Source of the DNA: a virus
Taxonomy: Duplodnaviria > Heunggongvirae > Uroviricota > Caudoviricetes
Reading direction: 5' to 3' (one strand)
IMG/VR virus record: IMGVR_UViG_3300022468_000772
Location: 22,224-86,223 of that record
DNA: 64,000 nt
Part shown: positions 3,678 to 57,736 of the stretch, in pieces
Layout: each line of letters begins with the position of its first letter
Position numbering within the stretch: position 1 is the stretch's first letter
Program-made: the position numbers and the translations under genes
The notes under the pieces: model-generated
Seen by the model: only the letters and a program-made list of their open reading frames with translations
Told to the model about the DNA's origin: nothing
Database searches by the model: none

Positions 3678-4370
3678 ATGAAACTAATTACTGAATTAAA
3701 TTACGATCCGTTGTCGCTTATCACTGAGGCTGATGCTTCTGGTGAGAAACACCTTTATATCAAAGGGCCAATGGCAGTATCGGAAGTTAAAAATAAAAAT
3801 GGTCGCGTTTATAAGAAGGCACTACTGGAAAAGGTCATTGAGAAATATACCAATGATTATATCAAAACAGGTCGCGCCCTTGGAGAATTGAATCATCCTG
3901 CTCGTTTAGCAGTTGATTATGAACGTGCTACTCACTTGGTTACCGAAATGGTTCAAGACAATAATGTCTGGATCGGTAAAGCTCGTGTGTTGAAAACTCC
4001 TATGGGACAAATCATTGAGGGTCTTTTGCGTTCCGGTGTGAATATCGGTATGTCTACTCGCGGTGCCGGTTCTATCGTAGAAGCAAATAACACTAAATAT
4101 GTTGGTGATGATTTTGTCATGACTGCTATTGATGCGGTTTCTGATCCTTCTGGTCAGTTCGCAACAAAAGACGGTTCCATGGCAGGATGCTTTGTTAACG
4201 GTGTTATGGAAGGTGTTGAATTTATTCAAACTCCTGATGGTCGGTGGCTTGAACAAGAAATTGCTGAAATGGCAAAAGCTGAGTACGACAAGAAAACATT
4301 AAATGAAGCTAAAGCACTTGAATTGTTTAGCGCGTTTATGACCGGGTTAAAAACTGGTCGATTAGATTGA
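3678..4370 (+). CDS. gp21: Prohead core protease
   Basis: KNKNGRVY, RALGELNHP, GMSTRGAGS, IDAVSDPS. Confidence 0.95.
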   Translation: MKLITELNYDPLSLITEADASGEKHLYIKGPMAVSEVKNKNGRVYKKALLEKVIEKYTNDYIKTGRALGELNHPARLAVDYERATHLVTEMVQDNNVWIGKARVLKTPMGQIIEGLLRSGVNIGMSTRGAGSIVEANNTKYVGDDFVMTAIDAVSDPSGQFATKDGSMAGCFVNGVMEGVEFIQTPDGRWLEQEIAEMAKAEYDKKTLNEAKALELFSAFMTGLKTGRLD

Positions 4371-4425: not shown

Positions 4426-5376
4426 ATGACCTTAGAAGAAATTATCAAAGACCGCCTGAAAGCAGCAACAGCACAATTGTCTGAAGCTAAAAAGCCTGAA
4501 GAAGTGAAGGCAGAAGAGCCAAAAGAAACTGCTGAAGACAAAGGTGTAGAAGATACTGTTTCTACATCAGTTAAAGCTGATAAGAAGCCTGTGAAAGAAG
4601 AAGTTGCTGAAGTGTCTGCACCAGAAGTGACAGAAGCTAAATCTAGCGTGTCCAGCCAAGTGTCTGCACTGTTGGAAGCCGAAGGTCTTTCCGATGAATT
4701 TAAAACCCAAGCAGTAACTATTTTCGAAGCTGCTGTGGCTGATCGCGTTCTTTCTATTCAGGAAGAAATGCAAAAAGAATTTGATGCTCAATTGGCAGAA
4801 GCTAAAGAGCAATTGGATAATGATATTGATGAGTTTTTGAGTGAAGCCGTTGCCCAATGGCAAAAAGATAATGAAGTAGCAATCAAAACTAACTTTAATA
4901 CCCAAGTGACAGAAAGTTTTATGGATGGATTGCGTTCGCTTATTGCTGAACACAATATTGAAGTCCCTGAAGGTAAAGAAGATGCTTTGGCTACTGCCCT
5001 GTCAGAAGTTGAATCTTTGAAAGAATCGTTTAAAGAACAAGAAGCTGCTCAAGCTGCATTGCAAGAACAAATCAAACAGTTCGAAAGCAAGGCATTGCTC
5101 GAATCCTTCCGTTCCAAAATGACCGTTGTGGAATATGACCGCTTCGTTCAATTGACCGAATCTATCAAATTTGAAACTGCTGAACAATATGAAAAACAAC
5201 TGACTATTGTGCTGGAAAACTTCGGTTCTGCAGCAAAGAAAGTTGCGAAGCCTGTTGTAGAAGAAGTGACTGAAGTTGCTGTTGAAAAGACTGTGGTTGA
5301 ATCCAAAGTTGATCCTCGCATGGCAATGTATGTCTCTGCTTTGAAGACTGGTTCTGCAAAATACACCAATAGTTAA
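4426..5376 (+). CDS. gp22: Prohead scaffolding protein
   Basis: Acidic coiled-coil, FKTQAVTIFEAAV, between gp21 and gp23. Confidence 0.9.
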   Translation: MTLEEIIKDRLKAATAQLSEAKKPEEVKAEEPKETAEDKGVEDTVSTSVKADKKPVKEEVAEVSAPEVTEAKSSVSSQVSALLEAEGLSDEFKTQAVTIFEAAVADRVLSIQEEMQKEFDAQLAEAKEQLDNDIDEFLSEAVAQWQKDNEVAIKTNFNTQVTESFMDGLRSLIAEHNIEVPEGKEDALATALSEVESLKESFKEQEAAQAALQEQIKQFESKALLESFRSKMTVVEYDRFVQLTESIKFETAEQYEKQLTIVLENFGSAAKKVAKPVVEEVTEVAVEKTVVESKVDPRMAMYVSALKTGSAKYTNS

Positions 5377-45637: not shown

Positions 45638-45758
45638 GCGAGGGTGGCGAAATAGGTAGACGCACTGGACTTTTACAGAATATCTTCCTAAGAGGGTATT
45701 CGATAAAATCCAACGGGGAGTGATCCTCATACGGGTTCGATCCCCGTCCCTCGTACCA
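45638..45758 (+). tRNA. tRNA-Leu-type gene with 32-nt hairpin insert in anticodon loop
   Basis: Acceptor GCGAGGG/CCCTCGT, Leu-type D and variable arms, T arm, CCA; insert at ~45672-45704. Confidence 0.8.
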
Positions 45759-55529: not shown

Positions 55530-56290
55530 TATGACATTGCGTAAATTACGGAAACTTCGAAGCAATCGTGCTGGATGGAACCACTTTTTTATGCAGTCAT
55601 GTCAATTTTTAAGCGTCTTCGGTGTGGATGATAAACAAAAATATCCCATTTTGACAGTCGGGTGGCGAGAATTGAAAGACTTGTGATATAATACAGCTAT
55701 CGAAAACAAAAGGTAAAATTATGGCAAATTTAAAAATTGTTAAGACTTATGTAACAAACAGCAAAGGCACTATGAAAGTTGCTTGGAACGTGGTTGAAAA
55801 TGATGGTTTTGTTGTGGAAACATTCAGTCTGAAGCGCGATGCAGCAAAGTGGCTGAAAAATACAAAGTGAGTCAAACATGAAATACGATGGAACATTTGA
55901 AGATTTTGTCAATGAAGCACTCCGCGCTGCGTTTGATGGTTTGATCACCGGTGGAACAAAGGGTATGAAAACTGTCATCTACCAGTATATCAATATCGCT
56001 GTCCAACTTGGTCGTGACGGTTCTCAGTTCAAGACTCGGGATTGAGTATGAAAGCTATATATGGAATTTTGAATGCTATTTTTAGTATAATTTTAATAGC
56101 TGCTTTCTATACATTTACATTTTTCTGTTATGTATTGGAAGAAACAAAACGTACATACTATACTGTTTTTGGGATTCCCTATTACACATTCAATGATAAA
56201 ATGCATAATTACTACAAAAGAAAATGATATTTGTATGAAATCCGTGCTATAATAGCACAACAGCAATTAATGATCGAGTTGATTGCTGAT

Positions 56291-56734
56291 AAGTTCTTTA
56301 GAAATTACTGTTGGAGGTAGGCTTAGAAGTAGCCATTCTGATACAAGAAAGGTATTACCGAATTAAGTTAGGGTAAGGTTTCTCAAGGTCAGACGCAAGT
56401 TAGATGATTCTCATATGAGGATTCTCGTAGTCAACAAGGTAAGGAAAACTGACTGACTTGTGCCTTTAAAGAGTCGAACAATAGCATGATTGTGACATCT
56501 ACAATTCTTAGAAGGGCATCAATAAGAATTGGAATTCAAAAGTGTTTCTGGTGAATATGGGGAAGATCGGAAACATCAGCAAATCAACTTTCGCGGGTTG
56601 ATGAAGCAATGGGGTAGCGCCCCTGAGAATTGTTGCACATGGGCCACTTGGTTAAGTACAGAGGCACCCCAGAAATGGTAAGGCTGAAGTTTCGTTTGGT
56701 GTAGAAACGCACAACAGTAATTTCTAAAGAATTT
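56291..56734 (+). ncRNA. ~440-nt RNA with 23-bp terminal stalk and 23S rRNA L11-site-like segments
   Basis: GAGGTAGGCTTAGAAGTAGCCAT at 56314; TTTAAAGAGT at 56465; no ORF. Confidence 0.7.
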
Positions 56735-56758
56735 CAAAAACTGTGTTATAATAGCTAT

Positions 56759-57326: not shown

Positions 57327-57365
57327 ATGACACGCTGTTAAAAGTGTGTTATAATTGAGAGATAC

Positions 57366-57550: not shown

Positions 57551-57636
57551 CTGGGATTAGCTCAGTCTGGTCAGAGCACCTGATTTGGATTCAGGAGGCG
57601 AAGTCGTATACGTAGGTTCGAATCCTACATCCCAGA
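57551..57636 (+). tRNA. tRNA-Pro(TGG) with long variable region and extended acceptor stalk, no CCA
   Basis: CTGGGAT/ATCCCAG, loop TTTGGAT; stem continues 10+ bp. Confidence 0.7.
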
Positions 57637-57736
57637 CACAATACTTTGAAGCGATTTCGGAATGAAATACTGAGTTCGAAATCTAACGGTTGTAAGTGAC
57701 GATGAAAAACGGAACTTCCATTTTAAAGTTCTTTGT

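Follow-up and report, generated by a model that had tools for sequence, protein, structure and literature searches.

The tRNA gene island of this phage carries, on the plus strand, a putative gene for a non-coding RNA of ~445 nt, at positions 56291-56734 of the window, by which we mean the whole 64,000-nt stretch of DNA that was analysed. The window belongs to a complete 198-kb virus record in which the element is single-copy, and no ORFs of note run across 56291-56734. The RNA is closed by a 23-bp stalk that includes one G-U pair (56291-56313 with 56712-56734). This stalk, already reported in the first-pass annotation, can be read directly and closes the element in the minimum free energy (MFE) fold (-131 kcal/mol, z = -3.9; 0 of 100 shuffles fold equally well).

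Inside the stalk lie pieces of the GTPase-associated centre (GAC) of 23S rRNA. The GAC comprises the top of H42 together with H43 and H44 (E. coli 23S positions 1051-1108); it is the 58-nt domain that binds uL11 and thiostrepton, and it holds the uL10 site. When indexed to E. coli rrlH, all pieces of the phage RNA, each on the plus strand, are in register. The 5' strand of the closing stalk (56291-56313, with G1055 at 56313) is the counterpart of the top of H42. It is followed at 56314-56336 by G1056-U1078, which make up the 5' strand of H43, the UUAGAAGUA loop and the start of the H43 3' strand, with G1062 at 56320, A1067 at 56325, U1072 at 56330 and U1078 at 56336. Insertion 1 (56337-56462) then separates U1078 from C1079, and the segment beyond it, C1079-U1090 (56463-56474), contains the end of the H43 3' strand, the junction UUUAAAG, A1088 and G1089-U1090. 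Insertion 2 (56475-56694) separates U1090 from G1091 and is joined by a UUUG linker (56695-56698) to the counterpart of H44, G1091-A1103 (56699-56711), in which G1091 is at 56699, A1095 is at 56703 and U1092 pairs with A1099. The 3' strand of the stalk (56712-56734) begins with C1104 at 56712. The two insertions, previously estimated at ~125 and ~220 nt, are thus 126 and 220 nt long.

The segment 56314-56336 shares 20 of its 23 nucleotides with E. coli 23S 1056-1078, and it is the only H43-type site with at most 3 mismatches in the 64 kb, where 0.00 are expected (100 shuffles). Within it, the H43 hairpin (56320-56334) has the 9-nt loop UUAGAAGYA, containing A1067 and closed by the pairs 1064-1074 and 1065-1073. 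The next segment, UUUAAAGAGU at 56465-56474, equals 23S 1081-1090. The H44 hairpin (56699-56708) is formed by the pairs 1091-1100 and 1092-1099, with G1093/A1098 closing the loop that contains A1095; the H44 copy by itself has 5 differences from E. coli and is not significant, and its assignment is backed by the family alignment and by the covariation of a base triple described below. An H43 copy just inside the stalk, a following rRNA segment at 56465 and a GTAGAA-loop hairpin standing for H44 had all been proposed in the first-pass annotation, and each of them holds. Because no Rfam LSU rRNA match reaches the gathering score in the 64-kb window and the whole 198-kb record contains one GAC-like site and no other rRNA, the element is, as judged from its sequence, a copy of the GAC domain and not a 23S rRNA gene.

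A promoter-like site with a TG extension (ATGATA-18-TATAAT; 56224-56253, plus strand) lies ~38 nt 5' of the stalk. It came from a consensus scan in which promoter-like sites around the element were no more numerous than in shuffles, and it is a candidate only. No intrinsic terminator was found 3' of the element. Extended -10 boxes of the form TGnTATAAT lie ahead of the RNA (56245-56253), of the small ORF that comes next (56743-56752) and of the tRNA-Tyr block (57347-57355), and their recurrence suggests a row of short early-type transcription units.

Related elements were found in phage contigs, in cultured phages and in a few bacterial assemblies. By blastn, Pseudomonas phage pf16 and Aeromonas phage 4_4572 were found to share a block of 60 nt with insertion 2, in each case in an unannotated gap adjoining tRNA genes, and in both phages the H43 copy and UUUAAAGAGU are contiguous, as they are in 23S rRNA. 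Pattern scans of IMG/VR contigs yielded dozens more loci, and 52 unique elements were parsed in full. A covariance model, R1, was then built from 13 short members (alignment A2). Among the fetched loci R1 recognised ~70 full-length members at E<1e-12, including variants with diverged junctions. With H43 split by the 126-nt insertion 1, R1 sees the window copy itself as two partial matches only (26.8 and 20.9-21.8 bits). The cultured carriers include Pseudomonas phages pf16, Astolliot, Milchi and UNO-G1W1, Aeromonas phage 4_4572, Xanthomonas phages XacN1, XbC2 and XaC1, Cronobacter phage GAP32, Pectobacterium phage CBB, Serratia phage BF, several Erwinia and Yersinia jumbo phages and a Vibrio phage. 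At most of these loci the RNA falls in an unannotated gap, as in GAP32 and Astolliot, or beneath a 'hypothetical protein' call, as in Milchi and Kaldavass; in UNO-G1W1 a small hypothetical ORF is annotated across the RNA on the opposite strand. In Xanthomonas phage XacN1 (L067, 1481-1843) it occupies an unannotated gap just after a gene annotated as a 2'-5' RNA ligase.

One relative, L004, is identical to E. coli 1055-1088 at 34 of 34 positions, and canonical relatives are matched by the Rfam model LSU_rRNA_bacteria over model positions 1084-1153 (E 2e-6) and 1094-1147 (E 1.4e-3). Relative to 23S 1051-1108, the core has zero indels in 37 unique elements.

The invariance of the 5' core (1065-1076 and 1081-1090) is partly imposed by the search patterns, so that for each pattern only the half it leaves free is independent evidence; these free halves are conserved as well. 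In the 82-row R1 alignment, 93.6% of the cells are paired, compared with 69.8% after shuffling and 36-54% when the alignment is slid; the covariation score is 0.506 against at most 0.145 in the controls, and 20 of the 25 pairs show changes on both sides. The family stalk continues the helix at 1051-1055/1104-1108 with a variable sequence: among 37 elements, pairing in the nine pairs of the stalk (1047-1055 with 1104-1112) amounts to 84-100%, and each shows 5-6 pair types, while most shifted registers reach 24-49%, and compensatory changes occur in all nine (82-row alignment). Within H43, the pair 1058-1080 is G-C in 16, U-A in 13 and A-U in 7 elements, and the pair 1064-1074 also covaries. The helix at the base of the insertion at 1090/1091 consists of four pairs that are 89-97% paired with 4-6 types each, and all four change on both sides. 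The partner of U1090 at 1101 is A or G. When ten diverse members were folded with RNAalifold, the stalk, H43, the insertion-base helix and H44 were all recovered, and 14 of the 24 pairs carried compensatory changes.

The tertiary contacts of the GAC are also kept. C1072-C1092-G1099 and G1071-G1091-C1100 are documented H43-H44 docking contacts of the E. coli GAC (PMC2952862). In the phage family, the triple 1072/(1092-1099) switches as a unit, 38 rows having C/(C-G) and 26 rows U/(U-A) (64 of 64, with no exception); the window copy holds the U/(U-A) version. The pair 1092-1099 as such is C-G in 42 and U-A in 28 cases, and neither 1092 nor 1099 is constrained by any search pattern. G1071/(G1091-C1100) is invariant. 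So are U1060 and A1088, in all 37 elements, which we take to be the pair of the known GAC structure. In the exposed loops, A1095, which lies outside the search patterns, is A in 68 of 70 rows, and A1067 is near-invariant; the latter is fixed by the 5' patterns, yet members retrieved with 3'-side patterns have A here as well. The UUU of the linker, which lies outside the 5'-core search pattern, is near-invariant as well. A pairing of this UUU with A1084-A1086 was considered and rejected, as it shows no covariation.

Compared with the GAC of 23S rRNA, the phage RNA shares the sequence in register, the helices, U1060/A1088, the 1071 and 1072 triples, the A1067/A1095 loops and the UUAAA junction. 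It differs in being a free-standing gene, ~445 nt long here, with a covarying closing stalk of its own, in having U1090-A/G1101 where E. coli 23S has A-U, and in being interrupted at 1090/1091 in all fully parsed members and at 1078/1079 in this member and L095. We are highly confident that the element is a selected structural copy of the GAC and belongs to a real phage RNA family. The first-pass reading of the element as a mimic of the L11/GAC region of rRNA is accordingly well borne out at the level of sequence by the register over 1051-1108, the covariation of helices and triple, and the LSU model matches in canonical relatives.

All 52 fully parsed elements carry an insertion between 1090 and 1091. 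The residue before it is U, and its last residue is G in 34 of 37 elements and A in three. In the window copy, this insertion starts from a 4-bp helix (CGAA 56475-56478 with UUCG 56691-56694) followed by a conserved C at 56479, and near its 3' end it holds a 'type i' block, GGCACCCC-AGAAAU-GGUAAGGCUGAA (56663-56688), that includes a GAAA-loop hairpin (56669-56678). Insertions of this type, which end in GGCACCCC, a GNRA-type hairpin and GGUAAGGCUGAA, are common to the window RNA and 22 other unique elements; the invariance of the block is likewise partly imposed by the search patterns, and only the half outside the pattern is independent. The flanking GKC/GMY triplets covary by eye (GGC/GCU, GUC/GAU, GUC/GAC and GCC/GGU). 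The inserts of other family members at 1090/1091 are of mutually unrelated types and range from 62 to 330 nt. Because these unrelated inserts occupy the same point, the GAC copy is best read as the common functional core and the insert as an accessory.

Insertion 1 folds into two hairpin domains. Only L095 also has an insert at 1078/1079, a 20-nt hairpin, and no close relatives sharing insertion 1 were found among 75 loci with the identical H43 15-mer. The 56291-56734 RNA is also the longest family member in the sample (446 nt in this comparison, against a median of 213 nt), and its stalk is the longest perfect one (23 bp against a family median of 9 bp). The heptamer GGUAAGG has three copies in the element (56372-56378, 56438-56444 and 56677-56683), two in insertion 1 and one forming the invariant part of the 'type i' block; the 64 kb contain 10 copies on both strands, with 3.25 expected for the whole window. 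GGUAAGG may be a repeated recognition or tertiary motif. A resemblance of AAGUACAGAGGCACC in insertion 2 to the sarcin-ricin loop was rejected, as relatives do not keep AGUA...GAGA...GA. A sarcin-ricin-like 14-mer with at most 2 changes is absent from all inserts of the sampled elements, the window RNA included, and local alignment of the inserts to the remaining E. coli 23S rRNA gave short, inconsistent matches only.

In all, 48 loci were counted in viral contigs, while a scan of prokaryotes at one genome per species (185,579 species) returned five elements and two genuine 23S variants. The five elements come from Clostridiaceae, a Flavobacteriales MAG, Acidithiobacillus, Anaeroplasmataceae and an unclassified MAG. 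The split-GAC RNA family is, in essence, viral. Its host span runs from Proteobacteria to Clostridia, Bacteroidota and Mollicutes-like bacteria. The uninterrupted core, in which the 5' core is directly followed by H44, gave 0 matches in viral contigs, so the family matches are not stray rRNA. As a control we used L069, the record of Paenibacillus phage Pd_22F, which holds a genuine uninterrupted 23S piece. L069 and many short 'phage' records carry such genuine uninterrupted 23S rRNA, likely as host contamination or transduced DNA. The 15.8-kb viral contig L006 contains two full family copies (2699-2895 and 4759-5056) with different inserts and diverged cores, both of the U/(U-A) version, as well as a weak fragment (3886-4039) that may be a third, degenerate copy with H43 only. 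The T4 stable RNAs rnaC and rnaD were considered as relatives and rejected, since they show no GAC-like sequence by eye and R1 has no match in T4.

Where the core varies, it does not follow the host: gamma-proteobacterial phages have G1089-U1090/A1101, whereas E. coli has A1089-A1090/U1101. All 52 fully parsed elements, by contrast, have the insertion site, the UUUG linker and the conserved C in common, and together these observations suggest a single ancient origin followed by spread among phages, and not repeated capture.

The neighbourhood of the RNA is that of phage tRNA genes. The island in the window comprises 15 tRNA genes, all on the plus strand, and the RNA at 56291-56734 has tRNAs and small ORFs as its neighbours, with the nearest tRNA 650 nt downstream. 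In this it is unlike many relatives, which are flanked at 6-16 nt on both sides by tRNA or tmRNA genes. Overall, tRNA or tmRNA genes occur less than 4 kb away from 29 of the 37 elements, and all 209 such genes are on the strand of the element. We infer that tRNA processing would release the family RNAs, which form units of the tRNA arrays. In the viral contigs L031, L042 and L051, a tmRNA gene lies in the tRNA array a few hundred bases from the RNA (~90 nt downstream in L051).

No recurrent neighbouring protein family was found, the best cluster being common to 3 loci only. There is no uL11 gene in 32 carrier records and neither a uL11 nor a uL10 gene in this phage genome; therefore, any protein partner of the uL11/uL10 type must be the host's. 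Elsewhere in the same genome (~157740-158153, minus strand; L073:1396-1809), a 137-aa ORF contains the factor-binding motif of the bL12 C-terminal domain, matching PF00542 over residues 75-103 only at 27 bits, barely above the cut-off. Of 42 other carrier records, only two have similar partial bL12 matches (Pseudomonas phage UNO-G1W1 and the L036 record). A phage bL12-like protein was rejected as a partner of the family, the gene being present in only 3 of 43 carrier records.

No description of a split-GAC RNA family was found in Rfam 15 or in full-text searches of the literature. The first-pass annotation had suggested kinship with GOLLD, a suggestion that is not supported: GOLLD, ROOL and other Rfam families have no match to the element at E<=10, GOLLD and ROOL none to the window at the gathering score, and the only matches among six relatives searched at E<=1 are to LSU. 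The covariance-model check that it had called for thus finds no described family that matches the element over its full length, and LSU matches canonical relatives only. The only trait shared with GOLLD and ROOL is that of a large structured non-coding RNA among phage tRNA genes, and we know of no rRNA-like domain in either. With the leaders of r-protein operons (e.g. L10/rplJ, RF00557), the phage RNA shares the imitation of an r-protein site on rRNA. However, L10-type leaders are cis-acting mRNA leaders of bacterial r-protein operons that mimic a local motif only, whereas the phage RNA stands alone in tRNA arrays and copies a whole tertiary domain; neither L10_leader nor any other leader in Rfam matches the element or the six relatives. 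A further likeness is to phage anti-defence RNAs, which are phage-encoded look-alikes of host RNAs and of which the tRNA examples occupy the same genomic neighbourhood; phage tRNAs replace or outcompete tRNAs cut by anticodon nucleases. To our knowledge, the split-GAC RNA has no cognate defence system. Unlike the tRNA and pseudo-ToxI mimics, it imitates a domain of ribosomal RNA. Pseudo-ToxI, an antitoxin mimic, is reported to be a phage RNA that defeats abortive infection (PMC3594212).

We then propose a model for the function of the RNA. On balance, we lean towards the view that the locus is a gene for a stable ncRNA of ~445 nt, an elaborate member of the phage family, whose GAC replica acts as a decoy or sponge. 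The RNA would fold off the ribosome into the native tertiary structure of the GAC, with one or two insertions projecting from three-way junctions and leaving the fold intact. Like its neighbours, it would be released from tRNA-type transcripts, and in this phage perhaps be made from a promoter of its own. It would then engage in trans something that normally recognises the GAC, either uL11 of the host, alone or together with uL10/bL12, or some factor or enzyme reading the A1067/A1095 cleft, and this partner would thereby be titrated or diverted from ribosomes. In the ribosome, the A1067/A1095 loops are contacted by EF-G, by the tRNA elbow in the A/T state, by thiopeptides and by modifying enzymes. 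Because the tertiary contacts are kept and the exposed A1067/A1095 loops are near-invariant, the imitation appears to extend to the ligand surface, and such imitation favours a trans-acting decoy or sponge of a GAC ligand. For the RNA at 56291-56734 in particular, insertion 1 (1078/1079) breaks the H43 3' strand, a stretch that we take from L11-RNA crystal structures to be part of the uL11 footprint, and canonical binding of uL11 is for that reason less certain here than for typical members. A decoy directed against a catalytic enzyme would need high abundance or tight binding.

For the family as a whole, we put at slightly under an even chance the broader proposition that phages of many bacterial phyla deploy the GAC replica, either as a decoy that absorbs a toxin or as a sponge for uL11 or the stalk that would leave ribosomes blind to RelA or re-tune the recruitment of factors. 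Among the specific roles, one that we hold to be possible, if rather doubtful, is that the RNA presents an excess of naked GAC sites to an enzyme, from the host or a competitor, that disables ribosomes at the GAC, sparing the ribosomes that the phage needs. Such a role would parallel that of phage tRNAs against anticodon nucleases, the RNA itself sitting among phage tRNAs, and it would have a precedent in pseudo-ToxI; the exposed A1067 and A1095 loops are, moreover, almost invariant. A toxin aimed at exactly the GAC exists: Tre23 ADP-ribosylates H44 at 1095-1098 and blocks the GTPase activity of EF-G (PMC8661411), and the cutting of translation-machinery RNAs by defence systems is emerging as a theme (bioRxiv 10.64898/2026.07.14.738597). 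However, Tre23 is an interbacterial T6SS effector, and hosts that span Proteobacteria to Mollicutes-like bacteria would demand a very widespread threat. We know of no anti-phage system that targets the GAC and of no GAC enzyme that accepts the free GAC domain. Capture of free or exchangeable host uL11 is an unlikely alternative role: ribosomes poor in uL11 would still translate but could not activate RelA, and neither starvation nor a flood of phage tRNAs would then set off the stringent response. Mutants in rplK (relC) have a relaxed phenotype, and RelA activation requires uL11. The core copies the minimal uL11-binding domain and keeps every fold-determining contact, the RNA is co-located and probably co-expressed with tRNA genes, and the carriers lack a uL11 of their own, so the protein would be the host's. 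On the other hand, the variable core positions are not matched to the host (G1089-U1090/A1101 in gamma-proteobacterial phages), insertion 1 of the RNA at 56291-56734 lies at the possible seat of uL11, and the benefit to the phage is speculative. Less likely still, and improbable in our view, is a soluble particle of the RNA with host uL11, uL10 and bL12 that would bind translational GTPases (EF-G, the EF-Tu ternary complex, IF2, RF3 or RelA) or tRNA elbows and, as a mini-stalk rather than a passive decoy, re-tune translation. The stalk helix does imitate H42, the factor-contacting loops are conserved, and a protein bearing the factor-binding motif of the bL12 C-terminal domain is encoded here and by 2 of the 42 other carriers; yet the stalk sequence below 1051 is unconserved, a bL12-like gene occurs in 3 of 43 carrier records, and no copy of the sarcin-ricin loop is present in the element or the sampled inserts.

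We regard it as very unlikely that the gene encodes a precursor from which intron-like inserts are removed to yield a contiguous GAC RNA of roughly 60-100 nt. Without insertion 2 and UUUG, GAGU meets a GCGUAA-type sequence, which is the junction of many bacterial 23S rRNAs (control L069), and the U before the insert and the usual G at its end are as at group I splice sites. However, Rfam group I and group II introns have no matches in the element or six relatives, the inserts go down to 62 nt, below the ~200-nt group I core, and in the three exceptions the insert ends in A. Moreover, the insert leaves from a three-way junction and not a bulge-helix-bulge, and the insert types are mutually unrelated. 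Bulge-helix-bulge and group I splicing of the insert were both rejected, as topology and sizes do not fit and Rfam gives no match. The explanation that the element is a non-functional captured rRNA fragment, assembly contamination or a cis-regulatory leader of the r-protein type is the most improbable of all and is refuted as far as sequence analysis reaches. Stray 23S pieces do occur in phage databases (L069 and short records), but this explanation is contradicted by compensatory evolution over ~70 members, a constant insertion site, the lack of any uninterrupted copy in viral contigs, and a single copy on a complete 198-kb record that has no other rRNA. Bacterial r-protein leaders do mimic rRNA sites, yet the neighbours here are tRNAs and not r-protein genes, and no Rfam leader matches.

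A free-standing, virus-encoded copy of a functional rRNA domain is undescribed, as far as Rfam 15 and full-text searches of the literature show. The family is widespread, with at least ~70 phage lineages that include well-known cultured jumbo phages; it is under clear structural selection, and it is placed with tRNAs, the best-known translation cargo of phages. Should the RNA prove to titrate a GAC-directed toxin, uL11, stalk proteins or GTPases, phages would have in it a new route to manipulate or protect host translation. If so, the family members would also be natural insertion-tolerant scaffolds of a classic RNA tertiary fold. Whether as a decoy for a toxin or as a sponge for uL11 or the stalk, the replica, if true, would constitute a new class of viral RNA mimicry that targets a functional centre of the ribosome. 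The cultured carriers make the RNA directly testable.

The ribonucleotide reductase of this phage is closest (58%) to the enzymes of Variovorax and Acidovorax phages. The tRNA island of the window also holds, at 45638-45755, a 118-nt tRNA-like gene that scores 41.6 bits with the Rfam tRNA model and was not called by ARAGORN. It has an apparent insert of ~40 nt after the anticodon stem, and several other tRNAs of the island (e.g. 57551-57637) have unusual extra segments.
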